In this document: piece by piece, positions 10,940-57,235 of the stretch
Layout: each line of letters opens with the position of its first letter
Numbering within the stretch: position 1 is the first letter of the stretch
Source: a virus
Taxonomy: Duplodnaviria > Caudoviricetes
Virus record (IMG/VR): IMGVR_UViG_3300026159_000398
Length of the DNA stretch: 64,000 nt
Direction: 5' to 3' (one strand)
The notes under the pieces: model-generated
The model's input: only the letters and a program-made list of their open reading frames with translations
Database searches by the model: none
What the model was told of the DNA's origin: nothing
Translations under genes and position numbers: made by a program

Positions 10940-12982
10940 ATGGAAAATCCACATGATCTTATTGCTCCTCGCAGTAAATTAACCAGAGACGAAATTAAGT
11001 TGGCGCTCAAACGTGTTGACCGTCGACTCAAACTCTCTTCAACAGATACAGAAGTTGCTGGTATTCCCAACGCGTTAGTTCAATCTTTTGATGACCTCCC
11101 ATTAACTCTTTATCAAGCTGGTGAATACAACGCTCTTGGTGCAGTTACAGCAAATGAATTGCTTGGTCACTTATATCAAAAAGAAGAACTCATCGGTGAA
11201 AGACGTCTGCGTTACAGTCGTCTTAAAGAAGCACAAAATCATCCTGAAATCGTTGGTGCATTAAATATTCATGCAGACGAAGCTACCACAGAAGATGAAG
11301 ATGGAGACATTCTTCATGTTGTGCACCCAAAAGAAGAAGTAATAGAAATTCTTGAAGAGCTGTATCAACGCCTCGGCATGAAAGATAAAGCATGGCAAAT
11401 AATTCGTGATATGAGTGGCTTTGGTGATACATTCTATGAAGTTGTTGTTTCACAAAATCTCAAACGTATTCTTAAACTTATTCCTATTCCACGTGAATAT
11501 ATAAAAAGACTTGAAGAATTCGGTGACCTTAAAGGCTTTGAAATAAGCGACATTGAAATAAAAGATGCAAACTCATTGCAATATTTCTCATACTCGGTCA
11601 ATTATAACACCGAGAAAGAGGCGCAAGACAAACGACTTTATCCATTCCGAATATTACACTTCAGAATTCCATCTTCTAAATATGGAATTTATGGTGAATC
11701 TGTTATTGATTCGGTTCTCTCTTCTATAGAACAATTATCAATCATGGAAAAAGCTCTCTTGATTGCACGCGTTACTCGTGCTCCTGAGCGCCGTATTTTC
11801 AACATTAATGTTGGAACTCTTCAAGGCGACTCTGCAATTAAGTACGTCAAAGATGTCATGAACAACTTTCGCAATAAAAGAAAGTTAGATGTCTTTTCTC
11901 GTGATAAAGTCGACTGGCAAAAAGACATCTTTGGAACCGTTGAAGACATTGTTATTCCTCACCGTTCTGGAGAAGAAGGCCATAAGGTTGATGTATTGCA
12001 ACAGTTGAATAATCCTGGAGATATTGGTGATCTTGAATTCATGAGAGACAAGATCTTCCCTGGTCTTGGTATTCCTCGTCAATATTTATTCGACGACCAA
12101 TTTGCCAGCGCAAATACAAATTTATCAAGTAAATCAAAACCATTTGCTAAGAAAATACGCCGCATTCAACGTTGTTTCTTGTATCAAATGTACAAATTAG
12201 CTTACATTGAATTGAAGCTTCAAGGTTATAGTGATCGTGATTTTAAAGAACTTGTATTGTTGATGAATAACCCATCAAATATAGATGAAAAAGAAAATCT
12301 TGAAATTGAAACGACTCGTTGGGGTCTCATTTCAACAATGAAACAAAATAACGCTGAGCGTGTATTCGTTCCTGATTATGTTATTTATCGTGATGTTTTG
12401 AAACTAAGTGATGAAGAAATAGTTGAATGGATGAAGCTTGCCGAATTGCAAGCAGCTCGCAAGAATATTTTTGAGGCTCTCCCAGAAGAAGAAAGACCCG
12501 AGGGTGCTGAAGATCTTACTGGACAACAAGAACCTCAAATGGGCGGAGAAGCCGGAGGCGGTGCTCCAGGCGGAGGCGCGCCTCCTCCAGAGGGTGGCGA
12601 AGGTGCGCCTCCAGAAGAAGGAGAAGCTCCAGCGGAAGGCGAGGAAGAGGGCGTGCCAAAAGACGCTATTAAGGCACTCGGTCCACCTCCTGCAAAAGCA
12701 GAAGTTGCTGAGTATGTTCCAATATTCAAAAACAAAGAAAAGTATCTGGAAGCGAAGCAGAAGAAAGAAGCATTCCTTAAAATGATTTCTGAAAGCATGA
12801 GCGCTCAGATAATTGAAATGGAAAAAGTTCATCAAGAAGAAGTCGAAAGAAAACGCAAGAAAACAAATGTAGCGTATCAAGAGATGGAACTTGCTGGTGA
12901 ATTTGAAGGATTGGATATTATACTCAACAAAATCTATACTGAAGAAAATCAATCCAAAAGGAATAAAAAAACCCGCCAATAG
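10940..12982 (+). CDS. portal protein (T4 gp20-like) with G/P/E-rich C-terminal extension
   Basis: HPEIVGALNIHADE, YGESVID, EKALLIARVTRAPERRIFNINVG, EDIVIP motifs. Confidence 0.92.
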   Translation: MENPHDLIAPRSKLTRDEIKLALKRVDRRLKLSSTDTEVAGIPNALVQSFDDLPLTLYQAGEYNALGAVTANELLGHLYQKEELIGERRLRYSRLKEAQNHPEIVGALNIHADEATTEDEDGDILHVVHPKEEVIEILEELYQRLGMKDKAWQIIRDMSGFGDTFYEVVVSQNLKRILKLIPIPREYIKRLEEFGDLKGFEISDIEIKDANSLQYFSYSVNYNTEKEAQDKRLYPFRILHFRIPSSKYGIYGESVIDSVLSSIEQLSIMEKALLIARVTRAPERRIFNINVGTLQGDSAIKYVKDVMNNFRNKRKLDVFSRDKVDWQKDIFGTVEDIVIPHRSGEEGHKVDVLQQLNNPGDIGDLEFMRDKIFPGLGIPRQYLFDDQFASANTNLSSKSKPFAKKIRRIQRCFLYQMYKLAYIELKLQGYSDRDFKELVLLMNNPSNIDEKENLEIETTRWGLISTMKQNNAERVFVPDYVIYRDVLKLSDEEIVEWMKLAELQAARKNIFEALPEEERPEGAEDLTGQQEPQMGGEAGGGAPGGGAPPPEGGEGAPPEEGEAPAEGEEEGVPKDAIKALGPPPAKAEVAEYVPIFKNKEKYLEAKQKKEAFLKMISESMSAQIIEMEKVHQEEVERKRKKTNVAYQEMELAGEFEGLDIILNKIYTEENQSKRNKKTRQ

Positions 12983-12994
12983 TTGGCGGGTTTT
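12966..12994. terminator. bidirectional intrinsic terminator
   Basis: AAAAACCCGCCAA-TAG-TTGGCGGGTTTT between convergent genes. Confidence 0.75.
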
Positions 12995-13019
12995 AATCAC
13001 AACATGAAAATCTGCTTGC

Positions 13020-13202
13020 TTAGGAGTAGGAACCTACACTGTAGCTGGCGAGATTTTCGGATTCCAGAAAGGACATTACCTGACGTCGAGGGGTTCCGGT
13101 CAGCATGGCGATTTTGCGCGCATCCTTGATGCCTTTCTGTTTCTTCGTACCTTCATAAATCTTGAGGATACGGTTTTGGGTTGAAGCTTTGAGCATATAC
13201 AC
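13020..13202 (-). CDS. small hypothetical protein
   Basis: AGGAG SD; divergent from the terminase gene. Confidence 0.45.
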   Translation of the reverse strand: MYMLKASTQNRILKIYEGTKKQKGIKDARKIAMLTGTPRRQVMSFLESENLASYSVGSYS

Positions 13203-13307
13203 TCTCTCCTGAAGTTATTAAATTTAACAACAACAAAATTTGTTGATTGAACTATATATAATTATATATCGGGAAACATATATTCATTTAGAAAAAAGTG
13301 GGAAAAA

Positions 13308-15119
13308 ATGGCATTCCAGGCACGAAAAGATGGACTTACGGAATCACAAATTGCTGATGAACTTGATAAATTGACTAAGGTTGATGACAAATCTGGATTT
13401 CTGTATTTCCTTGAAAATTATGTCTACGTTGAGCACCCAAAGGGTTACGCTTTCTTGGGAGATGAAATATTTAATTGGCAAAAAAATGCTGCGCCGACCT
13501 TCTTATCCTCACGTTACATTATCGCGAAAAAGCGTCGTCAGGTTGGTTATTCAACTGTCGTTGGCGCTTATTGTCTCTATCGCGCTTTGTTGTTTGATTC
13601 TCAAATCATTAACGTTGTATCTATTAAGTTAAAAGATTCTACAACGTTCCTTCGCCGTACAAAATTCATCTACAATAAACTGCCCGTTTGGATGAAGCAA
13701 AAACGAATTGAAGATGCGAAGACCGTTATGGTTTTTGAACATAACGGTTCTTCAATCTCCAGTTTGCCATTGACTGATGACCCTGCTCGTGGTGATACTC
13801 TTTCATTGTTGGTTCTCGACGAATTTGCTGCAATGAGAAATGCCGCACAAGTTCTTGCTGCTGGTGTTCCTTCTCTTGCAGCTGGTGCTTTCATTCCATG
13901 GACAAGTACAACTCTTCCATCACAATTGTTCATCATTTCAACGTATCCAGAAAATCCAGTTGACAATGAGTATGTTCGTCTTTTGAATATTGCTCGTGAA
14001 GATCGTGATAGTGGTTATGCTGTAGTTGATGTCGACCCAAGTGATATTCCATATTACAACAACCCACAATGGATTAAAGAGCAAGTTGACTTGCTTGGCC
14101 ATAAGAGAGCAGCAGTTGAAATTTTTGGTGAAGAGCCAATTGATTCTGAAAATGCTCTACTTCCAGCTCACGTATTAAAAGAACTCAAAGATGTACCACC
14201 AATTCGCTGTGACTTCTTGTTGCCTGATGATATTGACGAAGAAGGTTACTACAAAGATCTTAATGTACTTGGACAAGCCGAAGATAATTTCGATGAGTCA
14301 ATCAACTATATCAAAGGACTTTGGATTTGGGAAAATCCAGACCCAAATGCAGAATATTGTATTACGTGCGACGTTGCAAAAGGTATTGGCGGTTCTGCTT
14401 CTACTTTTGTAGTGTTCAATTTGCATACGATGGAGCAAGCCGCTGAATATGAGAATGACAAAATAGATATCGAAGGTTTCAAAAAGATAATTGAGATAGT
14501 GACCAACTATTACAATAAAGCCAAACTTTCAATTGAAAATAACGGTCTTGGTATTGGTGTAGTTGCTTATTTCTCTGAAACAAAAATGTACGACAATCTT
14601 TATTATCATCGAATGGCTAAAAAGAGATATGAGCCAGGATTTCCGATGGGTGTCAATACTCGTGGTCCTTCGATTGTTCACATGCAATCAATGCTTTCCA
14701 ATAAAGAATACACCATCAAATCAATTCGCCTAATCAATCAACTTCGAAACTTTGGCTACACGAATCATGGCAAGATTAAAGCATTGGGTTCTGGAAGAGA
14801 TGACATCGTTCTGGCTCTTTGCCAATTCTCATACCTCTTGAATATTGGCTGGGCGGTTTCCCTGAAACAAACTCGAGATGAAAGACCTCTTGGCATTATT
14901 AGCAGCCAAGAAATTGAAGCGATGAATCAGAAAGAAGAAGAAGAAAGATTGTTGAGTTCAAATAAACCCAAGTCACAAGTGTTTAAATATTGGGAAGATA
15001 TGGGGATTGATTTTGATTCGTTGGATGATAGAACAAAAGAGGCCATTGAAATGATCAAGGCCTCTGGTATGTCAATATCTCGTGAAGAAATAGAAAATAT
15101 TCTGAAAGGAAATTATTGA
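13308..15119 (+). CDS. terminase large subunit (gp17-like)
   Basis: KKRRQVGYS Walker A, LLVLDEFA Walker B, CDVA/IENN/RDD nuclease motifs. Confidence 0.92.
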   Translation: MAFQARKDGLTESQIADELDKLTKVDDKSGFLYFLENYVYVEHPKGYAFLGDEIFNWQKNAAPTFLSSRYIIAKKRRQVGYSTVVGAYCLYRALLFDSQIINVVSIKLKDSTTFLRRTKFIYNKLPVWMKQKRIEDAKTVMVFEHNGSSISSLPLTDDPARGDTLSLLVLDEFAAMRNAAQVLAAGVPSLAAGAFIPWTSTTLPSQLFIISTYPENPVDNEYVRLLNIAREDRDSGYAVVDVDPSDIPYYNNPQWIKEQVDLLGHKRAAVEIFGEEPIDSENALLPAHVLKELKDVPPIRCDFLLPDDIDEEGYYKDLNVLGQAEDNFDESINYIKGLWIWENPDPNAEYCITCDVAKGIGGSASTFVVFNLHTMEQAAEYENDKIDIEGFKKIIEIVTNYYNKAKLSIENNGLGIGVVAYFSETKMYDNLYYHRMAKKRYEPGFPMGVNTRGPSIVHMQSMLSNKEYTIKSIRLINQLRNFGYTNHGKIKALGSGRDDIVLALCQFSYLLNIGWAVSLKQTRDERPLGIISSQEIEAMNQKEEEERLLSSNKPKSQVFKYWEDMGIDFDSLDDRTKEAIEMIKASGMSISREEIENILKGNY

Positions 15120-15523
15120 TCTTCATCTTCCTCATAAGAAAGTTCTTGTTGTTTGCGTTGTTGAATCTCTCTAAAGTTGACAGCACCTTTAGGAATAAGA
15201 TTTCCTGTACCGCCTTGACTAAATGTTTGAGCAATCTTTTCACGGCTCTCATTAGTCATTTGTATCTTTATGATTCCTGATACTTGCGAAATAACTTTAT
15301 CAAGCTTTGCAGAAGCCGCAAAAACCAACTTCAGAGCATCATTAACTTTGGCTTCAAGAATTCCATCTTGACTCATCTCAAAATCTTGATCAAGAACACT
15401 TTGTAATTGACTTTTCATGTCTTTATAGTTTTGAATTGCCAAATCACGATCAGCTTCATAGACGGCAAGAGCGTCTTTTAGAAGTTTTGAAAGTTCTTCA
15501 AATTTTTCATTTTGAAAGTTCAT
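15113..15523 (-). CDS. hypothetical protein
   Basis: Helical ORF in the - strand chain. Confidence 0.55.
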   Translation of the reverse strand: MNFQNEKFEELSKLLKDALAVYEADRDLAIQNYKDMKSQLQSVLDQDFEMSQDGILEAKVNDALKLVFAASAKLDKVISQVSGIIKIQMTNESREKIAQTFSQGGTGNLIPKGAVNFREIQQRKQQELSYEEDEDQ

Positions 15524-15855
15524 TTCTTTAACAACCTTTTTAAGAGTATTCCCATACCTGTCAACAAATAATAGGCTGGTTCATTTCCTTTGCAATATTC
15601 TTCCATTTGTTTTTCAAGTTGACTTTGTGGTATATAAAACCATTTACCAAATATATTTGCCGAGAAACACCATTCAACGTGATCTGTTTCATGGCAATCC
15701 CATTCTTTACATTTATCACTGTCTTGAACAACGCATTTATGTTTTTGGCACCATTCAACTTCATAGCCATAATAGAATGTTAATTTACTGGTGATTTCCA
15801 ATGTAGCATAATCATCATTGATTCCAATGCTAATCATTTTCTTCCTCCATCTCAA
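15520..15855 (-). CDS. hypothetical protein
   Basis: ORF in the - strand chain. Confidence 0.45.
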   Translation of the reverse strand: MRWRKKMISIGINDDYATLEITSKLTFYYGYEVEWCQKHKCVVQDSDKCKEWDCHETDHVEWCFSANIFGKWFYIPQSQLEKQMEEYCKGNEPAYYLLTGMGILLKRLLKK

Positions 15856-38945: not shown

Positions 38946-38974
38946 TAAACTATATAGAATTATATTACATGCGA

Positions 38975-44384: not shown

Positions 44385-44455
44385 AAAAAACCTCTTAATA
44401 AATTATATTAAGAGGCAGTTCAATTTTTGTTCAATATTTTTTATTGAACTCTGAT

Positions 44456-46601: not shown

Positions 46602-46706
46602 GATAATTAGCCTCAACATAATTATAAATATAGAAGTGAGACCAGTAAGTTGAGGTTACTGGTCAAGGGAGCTACCCTCTGTCCTTCTGATATTATAATT
46701 ATATTA
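46602..46706 (-). promoter_or_regulatory. structured endonuclease leader, copy 2
   Basis: Same core; loop CCUCAAC complementary to GUUGAGG at the SD. Confidence 0.7.
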
Positions 46707-49250: not shown

Positions 49251-49294
49251 AAATGTCTTCTTATTGAATTATATTATAATTATTTATACTTTAT

Positions 49295-50770: not shown

Positions 50771-50902
50771 GAGAAAATATAAATGAGGGACCGATATAGA
50801 TTATGTGTTTATATCTGGCAGGTTCACCCACAGGCATCTTATCTACGAGCTATGTCTCTCACCAGCTGCCAACCTCTAACATAGATCACTTTACATTTTC
50901 TC
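50771..50902 (-). ncRNA. unassigned structured RNA (~132 nt)
   Basis: Closing stem GAGAAAAUGUAAA / UUUAUAUUUUCUC plus inner stems. Confidence 0.5.
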
Positions 50903-50905
50903 ATG

Positions 50906-50979
50906 AGACGCGGATGGGACTCGAACCCACACAAAACAGTTTTGCAGACTGACCCATTATTCCATTCTGGTACCGCGTC
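50906..50979 (-). tRNA. tRNA-Cys(GCA)
   Basis: Loop CUGCAAA; U73. Confidence 0.9.
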
Positions 50980-52705
50980 ATGAATAATCTACTTCACTGA
51001 ATTTGAATCCTTTGTTTTGAAATAGATCAATACAAATATCAACTAATTCAGCATTATATTTTGTGCCTCTGCCATCGCGTAATTCTTGAATAGCAATATC
51101 AATTCCGAGAGCCGGACGATATGGTCTATGAGAAGCGATAGCTTCAACAATATCTGCAATACAAATAATTTGTGCACCTAAAAGAATTTGATTTTCTTTT
51201 AATCCTTGTGGATATCCCGAGCCGTCTATTTTTTCATGGTGCTGATAAATCATTTCAGCAATTGGCCAAGGAAAATCAATCTTCTTTAAAATATCATAAC
51301 CATCTTTTGCGTGCATTTGAATCAATTGAAATTCAATGCTATTAAGAGATGATGGTTTTGCAAGCAATTCAGATGGAACTCCAAGTTTTCCAATATCATG
51401 AATACTGGCTGCGAGTTCTATTCCTTGAATATCTTCAAAATCAAGACCTTTGGCTTTGGCTATCTCTTTCGCAAGTTCTGCAACTCGCAATTGATGGCCT
51501 GCAGTATAAGAGTCTCGAGTATCAACAACCAATCCAAGAGCTTGAATAATACCACTCAACGTTCTTTGAAGTTTATATTCAGCTTCTTTTTTCGAAGTAA
51601 CATCAATCGAAAAATTCAATGTTGCTGGCTTGCCTTTCCATTCAACGCGTGAAGAAGTTATTTCAACCCATTTAATATTACCACGAGTATCTTGTACTCG
51701 AAAAGCGTAATTAGTTGGGACATCTTCTCCGTTTAATCTGCGTTGATATCGATCAAAAACAAAACCTAAATCTTCTTTATAAATAACTTCAGATACTTTT
51801 TTATTGGCAATAATTTCTTCTGGCGGACATTCCATCAATTTTCCGAATGCCGGATTTGCCAATGTAAAACCATCTTCTTGTGCAACAAAAATTGCTATTG
51901 GTGCGTCTTTAAAAAGTCGAACATAATCTTCTTCGGTCTTTTTCTTTTCTGTAATGTCAATACCAAACGACAACGTTCCAATAACTTTTTCAATAACCTT
52001 TACAAGAGTATTGCGCCAAAGAATGTATTTTTCTTGTCCGTCTTTGGTTAATATGGGATTTTCGAATTCGTATGGAATTCCCTTTTCTGTCAGTCTGTCA
52101 AACTGTTCCCATATTTCTGGATATTTTTCTCTCGGAACAAAAATTTCAAGAACTTTTTTATTCTTTACTTCATCAAACTTATACCCAGTAATTTCTTCAG
52201 CTGCTTTATTAAAAATAACGGCTCTTGCGTTATGATCAAGCATGAGAATCATTGTATTAGCGTGTTGAATTAAATCATCTGCAAATTCTTTTGCTAATCG
52301 CAGTTCTCTTTCTGTCTGCTTGGCGACTGTAACATCATGAATGATTCCTAACAAAAATTCTTCTTCAGCGATTTCAATTCGCGTCAAGAATATTTCTGTC
52401 TCAATCATCTTTCCTTCAAAATCAATACAAGTCCAATCATATTGTTGATTTTCAATTTGAGCAACTTGAATGATGCACTTACATTTATCTTCCGATAATT
52501 GTCCGTCTTTTTGATATTTTGGAGAAAGTTGTACAGGTGTTAAACCAATCAAATCCTCTCTTTGACATTTAAACATCTTTTCTGCTTGAGGATTGCAATC
52601 GACTATCATGTCACCCGCAAGAATTAAAATAGCGTTTGGTGTTTTATCAAACAGCAAACGATATCGTTGCTCTGATTCGAGCAACTTCTTTTTCAGCTGT
52701 TCCAT
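50978..52705 (-). CDS. PAS-PAS-PAS / HD-GYP cyclic-dinucleotide phosphodiesterase
   Basis: Three PAS repeats (N..AE..F/TG; DIT/DVT); YTAGHQ, IHDIGK, HHEKIDGSGYPQGL, RPYR. Confidence 0.92.
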   Translation of the reverse strand: MEQLKKKLLESEQRYRLLFDKTPNAILILAGDMIVDCNPQAEKMFKCQREDLIGLTPVQLSPKYQKDGQLSEDKCKCIIQVAQIENQQYDWTCIDFEGKMIETEIFLTRIEIAEEEFLLGIIHDVTVAKQTERELRLAKEFADDLIQHANTMILMLDHNARAVIFNKAAEEITGYKFDEVKNKKVLEIFVPREKYPEIWEQFDRLTEKGIPYEFENPILTKDGQEKYILWRNTLVKVIEKVIGTLSFGIDITEKKKTEEDYVRLFKDAPIAIFVAQEDGFTLANPAFGKLMECPPEEIIANKKVSEVIYKEDLGFVFDRYQRRLNGEDVPTNYAFRVQDTRGNIKWVEITSSRVEWKGKPATLNFSIDVTSKKEAEYKLQRTLSGIIQALGLVVDTRDSYTAGHQLRVAELAKEIAKAKGLDFEDIQGIELAASIHDIGKLGVPSELLAKPSSLNSIEFQLIQMHAKDGYDILKKIDFPWPIAEMIYQHHEKIDGSGYPQGLKENQILLGAQIICIADIVEAIASHRPYRPALGIDIAIQELRDGRGTKYNAELVDICIDLFQNKGFKFSEVDYS

Positions 52706-52774
52706 TTATTTTCCCTTAATAAAAATTGGTGTCAATTATATATTAAGTCGAAATTTATAAATGGAACAGAAAAT

Positions 52775-52847
52775 TAGGGCTACGGAGGTTTGAACTCCGA
52801 TCGTCAGGTTGAAAACCTGATGTCCTCACCAATTAAACGATAGCCCC
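52775..52847 (-). tRNA. tRNA-Glu(TTC)
   Basis: Loop UUUUCAA. Confidence 0.9.
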
Positions 52848-52849
52848 AT

Positions 52850-52953
52850 TGGCGGGGTCAGGAGTGTTTGAGCCTCCATCTCCTCTCACGGACGAGAGGT
52901 GTTTTAGTATGGCACGCTTGACATGCCAGGCCGGCCAATTAAACTACAACCCC
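52850..52953 (-). ncRNA. aberrant tRNA-Asp-like RNA with D-loop hairpin insertion
   Basis: GGGGUUG/UGACCCC-G-CCA acceptor; 8-nt loop CGUCCGUG; degenerate T loop. Confidence 0.6.
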
Positions 52954-52958
52954 ATAAT

Positions 52959-53030
52959 TGGGGTGAATGGGAGGATTCCCTCCATTTCAGGACCCGCTGT
53001 CCTGTGTCCTAGGGTTAGACGACATTCACC
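52959..53030 (-). ncRNA. aberrant tRNA-like RNA (8-bp His-type acceptor, GCG at the anticodon position, 4-nt T loop)
   Basis: GGUGAAUG/CAUUCACC-CCA; CAGGA-CAGCGGG-UCCUG; GGAGG-GAAU-CCUCC. Confidence 0.6.
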
Positions 53031-53033
53031 ATG

Positions 53034-53106
53034 TCTACGACCTGGGAGTCGAACCCAGATTTTTCTCCACCCCAAATGGAGTACCATTCCGCTAGGCGAG
53101 TCGTAG
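53034..53106 (-). tRNA. tRNA-Pro(TGG)
   Basis: Loop UUUGGGG; C1:G72, A73. Confidence 0.85.
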
Positions 53107-53110
53107 TTAT

Positions 53111-53181
53111 TTGTCCCTAAAGGAATTGAACCTTTACTGTGGGGGCCAAAACCCCATGTCTTACCGTTAGACGAAGGGACA
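53111..53181 (-). tRNA. tRNA-Gln(TTG)
   Basis: U1:A72; loop UUUUGGC. Confidence 0.9.
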
Positions 53182-53187
53182 ATGTTT

Positions 53188-53269
53188 GATGAAGAGCGGT
53201 CCGGTTTGCTACTAGCTACCATACGGCAACCTTCAAATGCATCCTTTGGGGCCTTGATTATTCTTCATC
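53188..53269 (-). ncRNA. unassigned tRNA-sized structured RNA
   Basis: GAUGAAGA/UCUUCAUC closing stem with two inner hairpins. Confidence 0.45.
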
Positions 53270-53272
53270 GAT

Positions 53273-53352
53273 TAGCCCACCCCAGATTCGAACTGGGACG
53301 CCGAAGCACAGGGTCTAGACCTGCTAGATAGACCAGATTCTCTTAGTGGGCC
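53273..53352 (-). tRNA. tRNA-Leu(TAG)
   Basis: Loop UCUAGAC. Confidence 0.88.
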
Positions 53353-53360
53353 GTAAAAAT

Positions 53361-53441
53361 TCGGGATACTCGGATTCGAACCGAGACGCAATTAAGCACT
53401 GGGTTTAAGCCAGCTGGATAGACCTATTCTCCTATACCCCG
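53361..53441 (-). tRNA. tRNA-Leu(TAA)
   Basis: Loop CUUAAAC. Confidence 0.9.
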
Positions 53442-53445
53442 TAAT

Positions 53446-53521
53446 TCGTGATGAAGAGATTTGAACTCTTACTGAATACGCTCTCAACGTATTTCCTCTA
53501 CCAAAATTGGGATACATCACG
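53446..53521 (-). tRNA. tRNA-Leu(GAG) with short variable loop
   Basis: AUACG-UUGAGAG-CGUAU; 5-nt variable region. Confidence 0.8.
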
Positions 53522-53604
53522 TTAATGCGACGCACTTTTGTTACTGTGATCAGCAGTTTTTTGTTTGTGCGCCTTATCGCTTTTACCGTGCGACAATTGC
53601 AATG

Positions 53605-53676
53605 TGGGTTGTCAAGGATTTGAACCTTGCCCTGCGATTTTACAGACCGGCGTGCCACCAGCAACACTTACAACCC
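53605..53676 (-). tRNA. tRNA-Tyr(GTA) with short variable loop
   Basis: Loop CUGUAAA; 4-nt variable region. Confidence 0.8.
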
Positions 53677-53681
53677 AAATG

Positions 53682-53752
53682 AGCATTCGACCAGAATTGA
53701 ACTGGCATCTCAGCGTTGGCAACACCGAATTCTACCATTAAACTACGAATGC
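53682..53752 (-). tRNA. tRNA-Gly(GCC)
   Basis: Loop UUGCCAA; U73. Confidence 0.9.
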
Positions 53753-53756
53753 AAAA

Positions 53757-53880
53757 CGTACTGGCGATAGGAATCGAACCTATACCGTCATCTTTTAAGG
53801 GTGATAATCAATCTCTGTCCGTACCAGTTTGGTCTAATGTGTAGAAATTGAGTTTTACGCTTTACCAAAAGCGCCAGTAC
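53757..53880 (-). ncRNA. tRNA / Y RNA hybrid (Ro-binding module at the anticodon position)
   Basis: Acceptor ACUGGCG/CGCCAGU, T arm AUAGG-UUCGAUU-CCUAU, internal UAGACCA-AAC-UGGUACGGA..AUUGA-UUAUC. Confidence 0.75.
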
Positions 53881-53884
53881 TATG

Positions 53885-53956
53885 AGCGGGAAAAGGGATT
53901 CGAACCCTCAACGATCAGTTTGGAAAACTGAGCTTCTACCATTGAATTATTCCCGC
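53885..53956 (-). tRNA. tRNA-Gly(TCC)
   Basis: Loop UUUCCAA; U73. Confidence 0.9.
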
Positions 53957-53958
53957 AT

Positions 53959-53990
53959 AATAAAAATGCCCCTCTTTGTGGGAGGGGCAT
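53959..53990 (-). terminator. attenuator terminator upstream of the tRNA array
   Basis: AUGCCCCUC-CCACAAA-GAGGGGCAU-UUUUAUU, 2 nt before tRNA-Gly. Confidence 0.8.
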
Positions 53991-54025
53991 CATTCCGATT
54001 TTAAAATTTAACACCAATTAAAACA

Positions 54026-54118
54026 TCACGGATGACATGCCCCAACCTGTCCTGGGAGAATCTGACCTTCCAGACTTGAGGGTTGATAAAAACGTTTATG
54101 TAAGGAACATATCATCAT
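54026..54118 (-). CDS. 30-aa leader peptide MMICSLHKRFYQPSSLEGQILPGQVGACHP
   Basis: Follows the TAATATAAT promoter (54136-54144) and an AGGU SD; last codons form an antiterminator strand. Confidence 0.75.
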   Translation of the reverse strand: MMICSLHKRFYQPSSLEGQILPGQVGACHP

Positions 54119-54135
54119 TTTGAATTACCTATAGA

Positions 54136-54144
54136 ATTATATTA
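54136..54144 (-). promoter_or_regulatory. recurrent phage promoter motif (T)AATATAAT (example copy)
   Basis: Same motif just upstream of genes or RNAs at ~6997, 10880(+), 18831, 18881(+), 18939(+), 25471, 27538, 31451, 36791, 38959, 42841, 44402, 45357, 46698, 49268, 52736, 57255, 59255, 59477. Confidence 0.75.
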
Positions 54145-54172
54145 TTGCACTTTGAAATTTATTTATAAAAAT

Positions 54173-54448
54173 TTACGCTACTTCTAAAAATTGTGCGTCC
54201 TCTCTGTCTTTTTGTTTTAACTCGGCATTTGAAAGAGGACGCTTACCAAATGCTCTTGTTTTACATGATTCACATCCACAAGATAATGGGTGGTGTTTTT
54301 TGTAATGACCTTTAAAATCTGCAAGAAACTTTTCGCCGTTAAGCGTGTTAAATTTTTCTGGCATCTTGATTTCGTCTTTCATTACATGATAACGTTTTTC
54401 GGTGATGCGTTTATTCTGGTGTCTTTTGTACGCTATTCCACGTCCCAT
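54173..54448 (-). CDS. small basic protein (H..CGCESC)
   Basis: GAGG SD; ORF track. Confidence 0.55.
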   Translation of the reverse strand: MGRGIAYKRHQNKRITEKRYHVMKDEIKMPEKFNTLNGEKFLADFKGHYKKHHPLSCGCESCKTRAFGKRPLSNAELKQKDREDAQFLEVA

Positions 54449-54454
54449 AAGACC

Positions 54455-54891
54455 TCACAAATAATTTTTGTAAAAGCTAATATAGCCTAAAGTCACTCCC
54501 CAATAATATCCAGTATTTTGTTGCTCAACTTCATCAACACATCTAATGAATCTGAATTGAGGTAAATAGAGAATATTTGGTTTTTCAAAAATTTGTTCTA
54601 TTTCAATGGTATATCGTTTTTTAAAAATATCTTTTGAATACATACTCATTCCTATTTTTTATTCAAGACTCTATACCACGAAAGTCTTCCATTTGAACCA
54701 CAACTATGATAAATTACAGTGTCTTTGCAAACAATATAATAATGATTGTATTCACCTTTAATGTCCAAGCCCCATATTTCGCATTCAGGAAACATAGTCT
54801 TTAGTATTTTGACATTTTTATCCCATTGTGGTTTGTCATTACCGCAAGCCAAAAACATCAGAAACACAAGACATAAAAATATTTTTTTCAT
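54455..54891 (-). other. two small genes (54455-54649; 54652-54891 putative lipoprotein, FLAC)
   Basis: Coupled ORFs with SD sequences. Confidence 0.5.
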
Positions 54892-55060
54892 TTTTCACTC
54901 CTTCCATCATTTGCTCTCAATAATTCAAGCTCCTCAAGAAGAGGTTTAATGTCTTGAAATTTTACCAGAGTATTGTCGTCATCTGGTTTTGCCTTAAATA
55001 AAGCTACATCAGGATTCCAATAATATTGGGGCACTTGTATCATCACTCACTCCTTTAATG

Positions 55061-55134
55061 TCGGGGCGAAAGGATTTGAACCTTCGACCACATGTTCCCA
55101 AAACACGTGCGCTACCAGACTGCGCTACGCCCCG
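55061..55134 (-). tRNA. tRNA-Pro(TGG), second copy
   Basis: CGGGGCG acceptor; loop UUUGGGA. Confidence 0.9.
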
Positions 55135-55308
55135 AAAATGACCAATGCAATTAAAGCCAATGCTGCTAAGATATACAAAAATAAAATGAATTTTATTTCC
55201 ATTTCTTTTCGTGCAATTCGACACTCCAACCACTCTGCTATCTGATGAAACGCCGATTCTTCTGGCTCTTCATGAATTGGTATTCTTGCTACTTTTTTAG
55301 TAGGCACT

Positions 55309-55554
55309 TTAGTTAGAGCTACCTTTAAAAAGTATTCCGCAAAGCCAACTGAGAAGAACCGCATGCCACCATCCGATTTCGCCGATGATGAATCCTTTAA
55401 CTACTATGCCAGGAAGAACAAAAGGCACTACATACGGCCATATCAGCCATACAAGCGTTCCAGCAAAAACCGCTACAATGAAAAGAAGCACTAATGCTAC
55501 AACGGCCGCTCCTACACCAGCAATAAGCTTGGCAATAAAATCACTCATTCGCAT
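55309..55554 (-). CDS. small membrane protein
   Basis: Highly hydrophobic; AGGAG SD. Confidence 0.55.
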   Translation of the reverse strand: MRMSDFIAKLIAGVGAAVVALVLLFIVAVFAGTLVWLIWPYVVPFVLPGIVVKGFIIGEIGWWHAVLLSWLCGILFKGSSN

Positions 55555-56497: not shown

Positions 56498-56572
56498 CGG
56501 GGCATACGGGACTCGAACCCGTGATGATTCCTCCGTGACAGGGAGGTGGCATTGCCGCTAGCCCAATACCCC
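56498..56572 (-). tRNA. tRNA-Asp(GTC)
   Basis: Loop CUGUCAC; G73. Confidence 0.9.
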
Positions 56573-57235
56573 AAATTGTTCGTAATATCGAATAGTATTT
56601 TCGAACCAAACTTCTAATTTATATCCTAAACTTTTTACAGCATTCCATTTTAAAATATCATTGTCTTTTTCGTATCCTTTAACTTCAATGTAATAAAAAG
56701 TATCATCGTGATTTATTACTTTAAAATCTAAAAGATATGAGTGGTCTTTTTTGTCTTTTCCAATATATGTGAATCTGTCTTTGGTATATTCCCAGTCTTT
56801 AATTAAATTATTATTTTTCCAATAATCAAGAATTTTACAAGTTCTTAATTCATAAGTTCCTTGAACTTTAATACCGTTGTAGTCATACCATTTGGTAGTT
56901 CCGCCTGCTACAAAATTATTTCCATCTTTATAAGCTTTTTTGTTGATTGTGCTCCAATTTGGAGGTTGAATTTTTTGTTTTAAAATAGCTAATTTGATAT
57001 TGACTTTTCTTGCGCATTCTTTTGAACAGTATTTTTGGTTTTTGGTTTTTGGAATAAAAGATTTTCCACAAACACAAATTTTTGGCTCTCTAATAATTTT
57101 TAATTTTTTGCTGACTTTTCTATTGATTTGTTCTCTGTTTTCTTTTGTACTAAATCCTCTAGCACATTTTGAAGAACAAAATCTTCCAGAGCCGTATGAA
57201 CCATTATGTTCATTGCCACAATTTTCACATTTCAT
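56558..57235 (-). CDS. homing endonuclease: zinc fingers + PD-(D/E)xK
   Basis: CENCG..FCSSKC; QGTYE..YLLDF..YIEVKG. Confidence 0.75.
   Translation of the reverse strand: MKCENCGNEHNGSYGSGRFCSSKCARGFSTKENREQINRKVSKKLKIIREPKICVCGKSFIPKTKNQKYCSKECARKVNIKLAILKQKIQPPNWSTINKKAYKDGNNFVAGGTTKWYDYNGIKVQGTYELRTCKILDYWKNNNLIKDWEYTKDRFTYIGKDKKDHSYLLDFKVINHDDTFYYIEVKGYEKDNDILKWNAVKSLGYKLEVWFENTIRYYEQFGVLG

Follow-up and report, generated by a model that had tools for sequence, protein, structure and literature searches.

Ribosome-mediated attenuators of amino acid operons (trpL, hisL, leuL, thrL, and pheL, as well as the multivalent leaders of ilvGMEDA and thr) place a translated open reading frame (ORF) between a promoter and an intrinsic terminator. 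Their RNAs form the exclusive helices 1:2, 2:3, and 3:4, the stop codon is positioned for a terminating ribosome to mask segment 2, and it is the act of translation, not the peptide, that is conserved. Here, we describe a cassette of about 210 nucleotides (nt) that resembles these leaders in each of these respects and precedes tRNA genes in an uncultured phage (Caudoviricetes; IMG/VR record IMGVR_UViG_3300026159_000398). The stretch of DNA analyzed, referred to as the window, is 64,000 nt long and is part of this 205-kilobase (kb) record; all leader coordinates are on the minus strand. We put the probability at roughly 0.55 that the cassette is a ribosome-mediated (leader-peptide) transcription attenuator gating phage tRNA genes. 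The phage probably transcribes these tRNAs only when ribosomes decode slowly.

Several features set the cassette apart from the amino acid leaders. These gate biosynthetic enzymes, whereas the phage leader precedes tRNA genes, and in place of their runs of regulatory codons it carries about one codon for each of 18 tRNA species. The start codons are part of its 1:2 helix, and the switch would respond to decoding capacity (the tRNA pool), not to a single amino acid. T-box riboswitches, which sense tRNA directly upstream of aminoacyl-tRNA synthetase and amino acid genes, likewise tie a decision between terminator and antiterminator to tRNA status. In contrast to them, the phage leader has no specifier-loop architecture, and sensing would go via the ribosome; no T-box match was found in Rfam at E values up to 10. 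Multivalent attenuator leaders have been the subject of modeling (PMC1183508). Full-text literature searches turned up no account of attenuation acting on phage tRNA genes, in agreement with the initial annotation of this locus, which knew of no described equivalent. The leader is probably of the textbook attenuation kind, in a setting, tRNA genes, for which we found no such control described.

The window carries 27 tRNA genes and a transfer-messenger RNA (tmRNA) gene, all on the minus strand. The initial annotation had listed a promoter, a Shine-Dalgarno (SD) sequence, a 30-codon ORF, a terminator, and tRNA-Gly in this order, and every one of these elements was found where it had been placed. 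The parts of the cassette, with the first tRNA unit behind it, are as follows.

54160-54167, minus strand: conserved TATAAATA box, at the start of the conserved block; also present in the diverged cassette of contig L008
54136-54144, minus strand: putative promoter -10 element TAATATAAT, invariant in all relatives
54127-54130, minus strand: SD sequence AGGT, 8 nt 5' of the ATG
54026-54118, minus strand: leader ORF of 30 sense codons plus TGA, open in all six relatives
54104-54116, minus strand: segment 1 (start-codon region), which pairs with segment 2 and is invariant in relatives
54029-54043, minus strand: segment 2 (codons 26 to 30), which pairs with segment 1 or, as the antiterminator, with segment 3, and is invariant in relatives
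53998-54025, minus strand: A/U-rich linker of 28 nt, from the stop codon to segment 3
53982-53997, minus strand: segment 3, the partner of segment 2 and also the 5' arm of the terminator
53991-53965 (hairpin) and 53964-53957 (U-tract), minus strand: intrinsic terminator with 10 base pairs (bp), of which 6 are G-C, at -17.0 kcal/mol
52774-53956, minus strand: first gated unit, with nine tRNA species, a tRNA-like RNA, and two tRNA mimics

The proposed attenuator would gate read-through, both from the phage promoter and from upstream transcription, into the tRNA block. RNA polymerase would start at TAATATAAT, and a ribosome would load onto the 30-codon ORF. A fast ribosome that reaches the stop codon would cover segment 2, so that segment 3 would pair with segment 4 (the terminator 3' arm) and transcription would end 3 nt before tRNA-Gly. 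A ribosome that lags or stalls early would leave segments 2 and 3 to pair; the terminator would be blocked, and polymerase would read into the tRNA genes. Without translation, segments 1 and 2 would pair, the start codons would be hidden, and the terminator would form. The tRNA products would speed decoding of the leader, providing negative feedback on tRNA supply. We infer that termination is governed by how fast the leader is translated and that, through the variety of its codons, the switch responds to many tRNAs simultaneously.

Folding predictions give the alternatives that such a switch needs. The minimum free energy (MFE) structure of the full RNA contains the terminator and a 13-bp 1:2 helix (54116-54104 with 54043-54031; duplex energy, -17.3 kcal/mol), which joins the start region to the ORF end and is absent from the initial annotation. 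The antiterminator pairing that the annotation did propose is real and longer than claimed, with 13 bp, two bulges, and a duplex energy of -17.4 kcal/mol; the linker forms a small hairpin within this fold. The three helices are therefore near-equal in duplex energy (-17.3, -17.4, and -17.0 kcal/mol for 1:2, 2:3, and the terminator, respectively). Segment 2 holds GGGGCAU, a copy of the terminator 3' arm. In nascent RNA that lacks segment 4, 2:3 forms, and a simulated ribosome at codons 3 to 6 leads to the antiterminator even in full-length RNA. With a ribosome at codon 24 or later, the terminator forms. In the predicted folds, the antiterminator and the terminator exclude each other, and the 5' strand of the antiterminator is placed where it would be masked by a terminating ribosome.

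We give most weight to the diverged cassette of contig L008. It lies at the orthologous place, following a gene 68% identical to that before the cassette of contig L009, and has both promoter boxes (TATAAATA and TAATATAAT). Its 28-codon ORF keeps the frame of the window ORF, and in an ungapped alignment (51% nucleotide identity) the two stop codons coincide; the peptides share 4 of 28 residues, with no codon-position pattern. The stem of the L008 terminator differs in sequence, two of its base pairs having changed in a compensatory manner, and the last codons of the ORF are a near-copy of the 3' arm of this terminator, extended by a further 9 to 10 bp. The resulting antiterminator stabilization (ddG, 9.0 kcal/mol) is equaled in 1 of 400 shuffles. 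The start codon again pairs with the ORF end, here in a 12-bp helix, and the overall fold has a z-score of -3.5, with none of 200 shuffles as stable. After the terminator comes tRNA-Tyr, the sole tRNA visible before the contig end. The two cassettes thus share an open frame, its length, where it starts and stops with respect to three exclusive helices, and the order of terminator and then tRNA; the peptide is not conserved. Conservation of an RNA switch and of the act of translation, with a peptide free to change, is the signature of a leader-peptide attenuator. Because the frame and helices are kept and the peptide is not, the comparison argues against a functional micro-protein and also against a pure non-coding RNA.

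The micro-protein would take the form of a "moron," an autonomous mini-gene encoding a functional peptide of 30 amino acids (aa), with a leaky terminator behind it and the tRNAs transcribed by constitutive read-through. The cassette is like a moron in its three-part anatomy of promoter, ORF, and terminator and in its patchy presence among relatives (contigs L004 and L024 are without it), and the block edges match a movable unit. The peptide is also well conserved within the window clade, where most substitutions are synonymous, and as read from the sequence, it has C-x2-H near the start and C-H near the end, which could bind metal. However, the conservation of the protein is limited to this close clade and does not extend across homologues: L008 keeps the frame, length, start and stop places, and RNA helices with 4 of 28 residues and no codon-position signal. 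The first eight and last five codons are invariant at third positions, whereas the middle of the ORF is about 18% diverged in L003; this invariance at the ORF ends points to a constraint on the RNA rather than on the protein. An independent gene has no need for an internal copy of the terminator arm, yet L008 has rebuilt this copy. The cassette further differs from morons in that its RNA pairings, not its peptide, are conserved between types and in that promoterless genes behind it need read-through. We consider the moron explanation unlikely.

The attenuator reading also agrees with variation among close relatives. These were found via the 91-aa protein encoded upstream of the cassette, which has nine homologues at 97 to 59% identity, on contigs from sludge and anaerobic-digester metagenomes. 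The samples of contigs L008 and L009 are SRR8925737 and SRR8925817, respectively. Six contigs (L002, L003, L005, L006, L007, and L009) carry the cassette, and the block, from the TATAAATA box through the U-tract, hardly varies among all six, whereas the flanks differ. The upstream protein is 67 to 85% identical in L003, L005, L007, and L009 (97% in L002); L009 has a different gene inserted upstream of the cassette, and similarity to the window starts at the TATAAATA box. Behind the same leader, tRNA-Gly(UCC) (53884-53956, compared with L002, L003, L005, L007, and L009) occurs as two very different alleles, and most relative contigs have a 26-nt insertion between the U-tract and this gene. Substitutions within the block are confined to codons 9 to 25, with 7 synonymous and 5 replacement steps by manual count and 7 of 12 at third positions. 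All indels are outside the ORF, which is open in 6 of 6 contigs. The promoter, codons 1 to 8, codons 26 to 30, and the terminator stem are unchanged; the linker is nearly invariant (one change or indel in L005 and in L009), and the terminator change in L005 is in the loop only. This distribution of substitutions, together with the invariance of the pairing segments, amounts to nucleotide-level constraint on these segments and ORF-level constraint between them. The initial annotation had held that its reading would fail if the ORF and the antiterminator pairing were not conserved in relatives; both are kept in the six contigs, and the pairing is rebuilt in L008.

Searches for further relatives were made in several collections. 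No close relatives were found in the phage collection, and none were found in IMG/VR by the upstream protein, by DNA patterns, or by an HD-GYP protein. Scans of metagenome and genome contigs with 20-mers gave chance matches only: the flanks in L015 to L018 are unrelated, and the matches L019 and L020 are from a Deltaproteobacterium and Streptomyces, respectively. The 205-kb genome contains no second copy (paralogue) of the cassette. A second short frame, running from ATGATG in segment 3 through the terminator, was considered and rejected, as it is broken in relatives with the 26-nt insertion.

A different interpretation of the conserved block is that it encodes a small non-coding or dual-function RNA (sRNA), acting in trans or binding a protein, with the ORF being incidental. 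The layout (a 5' stem domain, an A/U-rich single strand, a terminator hairpin, and a U tail) is like that of Hfq-type sRNAs, and the linker is nearly invariant, though an attenuator needs only its length. No Rfam family matches the leader above threshold, but there is a weak match to the Bacteroidetes FopS sRNA (RF04319; 26.7 bits against a gathering threshold of 56; E value, 0.03), with most of the score from the terminator. Phe_leader (RF01859) is also below its threshold (19.7 bits against 55; E value, 0.4), and a subthreshold match to C/D-box snoRNAs, via the word AUGAUGA, was not taken as membership. In one metatranscriptome, only the leader stretch of a 1.3-kb region is covered; the RNA runs are low-depth Logan contigs, from which transcript starts, ends, and levels are not readable and in which uncovered parts are uninformative. 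A frame that is open in every relative, and in L008 up to the same stop column, does not fit an incidental ORF, nor do an SD and start context as in real genes and substitutions biased to synonymous sites. The promoterless tRNA genes after the terminator would also be left unexplained. An sRNA function is compatible with attenuation rather than exclusive of it, as sRNAs derived from attenuators exist (e.g., rnTrpL; PMC6614838). As the full explanation, we think it quite unlikely.

A metatranscriptome contig of 265 nt bears on read-through in the proposed attenuator. It runs from 54158 through the terminator and a further 67 nt into the insertion and tRNA-Gly of a relative and is thus compatible with a read-through RNA that joins the leader, the terminator, and the start of tRNA-Gly. 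Its depth is 2.5, DNA carry-over is possible, and it begins upstream of the proposed -10 element.

The promoter assignment draws on the rest of the genome. There are 21 copies of TAATATAAT on the coding strand and 6 on the other strand, with copies located 15 to 35 nt 5' of the SD sequence and start codon of ordinary genes. One copy (49276) is directly 5' of tRNA-Trp, and a near-identical 5' leader occurs at another phage gene (genome place 120566). Promoter, SD sequence, and start codon are spaced in the leader as in other phage genes; therefore, the ORF stands in the context that the phage uses for translation. This pattern points to TAATATAAT as a genuine promoter of the leader. The TATAAATA box was considered as a T4-type late promoter, a candidate we rejected because the motif has no strand bias in the genome (13 versus 17 copies). 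We leave it as a conserved box without an assigned role.

The leader terminator is the strongest terminator-like site on the minus strand between 43.5 and 60 kb, that is, across the whole 16.5-kb tRNA region. tRNA-Gly(UCC) begins at 53956, 1 nt past the U-tract, and heads the first unit, in the order Gly(UCC), tRNA-like RNA, Gly(GCC), Tyr, Leu(GAG), Leu(UAA), Leu(UAG), Gln, Pro, the two mimics, and Glu. The Leu(UAG) gene (53273-53352, minus strand) is reported by ARAGORN as "tRNA-Pyl(cta)"; alignment with its L002 and L005 homologues identifies it as tRNA-Leu(UAG) with C33 in place of U. From the terminator down to 52774, a consensus-match scan of the minus strand found no promoter; the nine tRNA genes in this interval should therefore depend on read-through.

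A strong terminator inside a co-oriented array with no downstream promoter could also serve as a temporal gate, read through only with a phage antitermination factor or a modified polymerase, with the ORF and the pairings idle. Delayed-early genes of phages are classically under antitermination, and the N and Q systems of lambda are the textbook precedent. A gate of this type leaves unexplained why the ORF is conserved and why the 2:3 and 1:2 pairings are rebuilt in L008, and we therefore consider it very unlikely.

If the cassette is an attenuator, the question arises of what its codons report. The initial annotation had described the ORF as a codon checklist, a leader that audits the tRNA pool. 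We matched codons to tRNAs by strict wobble rules, with the ARAGORN "Pyl" corrected to Leu(UAG). The description of the codons themselves holds: codons 2 to 23 are 22 different codons (P value for the run, 0.003 to 0.05), and the synonymous families are sampled as claimed (Ser TCC/TCA/AGT, Leu TTA/CTG/CTC, Gly GGT/GGA, Pro CCC/CCA, Gln CAA/CAG, and Ile ATA/ATT). Of the 15 "downstream" amino acids, 14 are encoded within codons 1 to 24, where V, A, D, N, and T are all absent; codons 25 and 27 are the ones that specify V and A.

The leader covers the downstream tRNA genes unusually well. Of the 20 tRNA species encoded downstream, 18 have a cognate codon in the leader, as do all 9 of the first unit (P, 0.0004 to 0.008). 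A coverage of 18/20 is reached in 0 of 10,000 30-codon windows of phage genes (random nulls, 0.0004 to 0.002) and, among 700 ATG ORFs of 30 to 60 codons in the genome, by the leader alone. Across the whole phage set, 19 of 25 tRNA species are sampled (P, 0.008 versus genes and about 0.04 versus random ORFs). The species left unsampled include four or three that are "upstream-only" (hypergeometric P, 0.005 or 0.04), and 11 of the 14 residues at codons 11 to 24 are first-unit amino acids (scan statistic P, 0.009). Relatives keep the coverage by relocating codons: the sole CGT has shifted from codon 9 to codon 19 in L003 and L005, and the sole AGT from 15 to 9 in L003. Such relocation keeps 18/20 coverage with a P of 0.008 to 0.02 given the replaced positions and of 0.10 for any positions.

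These results bear on whether the leader is a "one codon of each" sensor, in which a stall at any of about 18 codons would switch on phage replacement tRNAs. If so, triggers could be a mismatch between the host tRNA pool and phage codon usage, starvation, or cleavage by a host anticodon nuclease, and the system would be an inducible counter-defense with feedback. Several observations speak against a sensor of this kind. All codon tests were designed after seeing the sequence, and the cut at codon 24 is post hoc; with all 30 codons, the hypergeometric P of the partition is 0.005 to 0.04. Three of the five replacements in relatives create Asn or Thr codons, which the claimed pattern excludes, and the haplotype of the RNA contig is without the sole strict Ser(UGA) codon. 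The L008 leader, less diverse than that of the window, has just one Tyr codon ahead of tRNA-Tyr. It contains Asp, Asn, Thr, and Trp but no Ile, Cys, Leu, Phe, Val, or Ala, nearly the complement of the window leader. There are no tandem regulatory codons, and sensitivity to any one tRNA would therefore be low. The checklist claim is supported in part, by the unusual coverage and its retention in relatives through codon relocation, and weakened by post hoc statistics, by the Asn and Thr gains, by L008, and by promoters inside the array. The statistics modestly favor a designed census of the tRNA pool or a counter to tRNA-cleaving defenses, and we regard the sensor as a tentative proposal, possible but doubtful.

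Chance could in principle account for more than the codon patterns. The cassette might be a spacer with the ordinary terminator of the upstream gene, an accidental ORF, and codon patterns seen post hoc. Single tests within the window are marginal, the codon-24 cut-off was picked after looking, and by our own arithmetic, a frame of 30 codons stays open after a given ATG in about 11% of cases at this base composition. It is hard to reconcile such an origin with a block that is conserved against divergent flanks, with the replicate in L008 (1/400 shuffles; z-score, -3.5), with the TAATATAAT promoter family, or with a leader that is the most extreme of 700 small ORFs for tRNA coverage. We consider chance most improbable.

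The attenuator reading itself has to be weighed against a number of findings that count against it. With a ribosome at codons 9 to 21, the full-length MFE fold contains the terminator, not the antiterminator, and at codons 12 to 21 segment 1, behind the ribosome, pairs with segment 2, ahead of it. In these folding models, only stalls within about the first nine codons should give unambiguous read-through, because later stalls let 1:2 pair or mask segment 2; masking would apply to stalls at the Gly(UCC) codons, at positions 23 and 26. In the window, antiterminator stabilization is equaled in 28 of 500 shuffles and the 13-bp helix in 31 of 1,000, both marginal, and the z-score of the whole-leader fold is -1.35. 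The region from 50900 to 55500, compared with L003, L005, and L006, is a population mosaic in which stretches of 100% identity alternate with stretches of 70 to 85% on a scale of a few hundred bases, a pattern suggestive of frequent recombination; the many 100%-identical blocks of this mosaic inflate apparent conservation. There are four leader haplotypes plus L008, too few for column-by-column covariation. The cassette is dispensable, because relatives L004 and L024 do without it. Finally, exact copies of TAATATAAT lie inside the array at 49276, 46706, and 45365, with a variant at 52736, as the initial annotation had cautioned. Distal tRNAs are thus at least partly independent, and clear read-through dependence applies only to the first nine tRNAs. 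What remains in favor of an attenuator is a conserved promoter-to-terminator unit with a short ORF and ribosome-binding site, a diverged homologue that rebuilds the three exclusive helices, and no consensus promoter before the first tRNA genes.

A similar architecture recurs in an unrelated phage with an unrelated host. In the Caulobacter phage phiCbK (JX100813; 46800-53000), GenBank-annotated intrinsic terminators lie directly before three tRNA blocks, and a short ORF precedes each terminator. The product of one of these, gp083 (45 aa), sits before a Pro-Pro-Lys-Lys-Leu-Leu-Leu-Ser-Ser tRNA block, and 23 of its 45 residues (51%) are Pro, Lys, Leu, or Ser, compared to a background of 23%; none of 3,856 windows reaches this value. 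Its matched residues are repeated, in the classical multivalent style, and in this it differs from the leader described here. The 32-codon ORF before a Phe/Val/Ile/Gln/Gly block has 12 of 32 residues matched (P, 0.18; not significant), and the third mini-ORF, with 3 of 20, is unconvincing. The recurrence thus appears to lie in the architecture, with an uneven codon match. The phiCbK genome paper does not discuss these terminator and mini-ORF units (PMC3556154).

With a translation-coupled attenuator in front of its tRNA genes, the phage would gauge decoding capacity and tune its tRNA supply accordingly. Such an attenuator would extend a textbook mechanism from amino acid operons to tRNA genes and would offer a small sensor of the tRNA pool that is open to testing. 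The reason for the tRNA arrays of phages has long been debated, and to our knowledge the regulation of phage tRNA genes is essentially unstudied. Among the answers put forward for the arrays are codon compensation and the replacement of tRNAs cut by defense nucleases (PMC10264068, eLife 2023; PMC11555353, Nat Commun 2024).

Other TAATATAAT copies show further arrangements. The copy at 38967 (minus strand) is directly 5' of a non-coding stretch, and together with the copy before tRNA-Trp at 49276, it suggests that the phage also drives RNA genes straight from TAATATAAT, without a leader. About 20 nt after the copies at 46706 and 45365 (minus strand), both loci carry the same stretch of about 20 nt ending ...GGGTAGCTCCCTTG, which may be a repeated small RNA or regulatory element. 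At 44390-44416 (minus strand), a TAATATAAT copy is in the loop of an 11-bp hairpin directly 5' of a gene start.

Genes around the cassette and in its relatives have features of their own. Homing-endonuclease-like genes occur near the mosaic region. The more distant contig L024 (37 kb) encodes both a Ro60 (TROVE) protein, at 12736-14355, and a tmRNA, in the region of 15406-15744, whose tag differs (AETLELKAA); no strong terminator was found in its tRNA region. The 91-aa protein upstream of the cassette (54173-54448, minus strand) contains a Cys-rich stretch, C-G-C-E-S-C, is confined to this phage group, and has no Pfam match among its homologues. Farther upstream, a 225-aa protein (56558-57235, minus strand) has 809 metagenome homologues, some of them on contigs of 200 to 260 kb, and some sources name these homologues YacG/DUF329-like. 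The gene of the 225-aa protein is of no use as a synteny anchor and is probably mobile, because its positions differ between L008 and the window.

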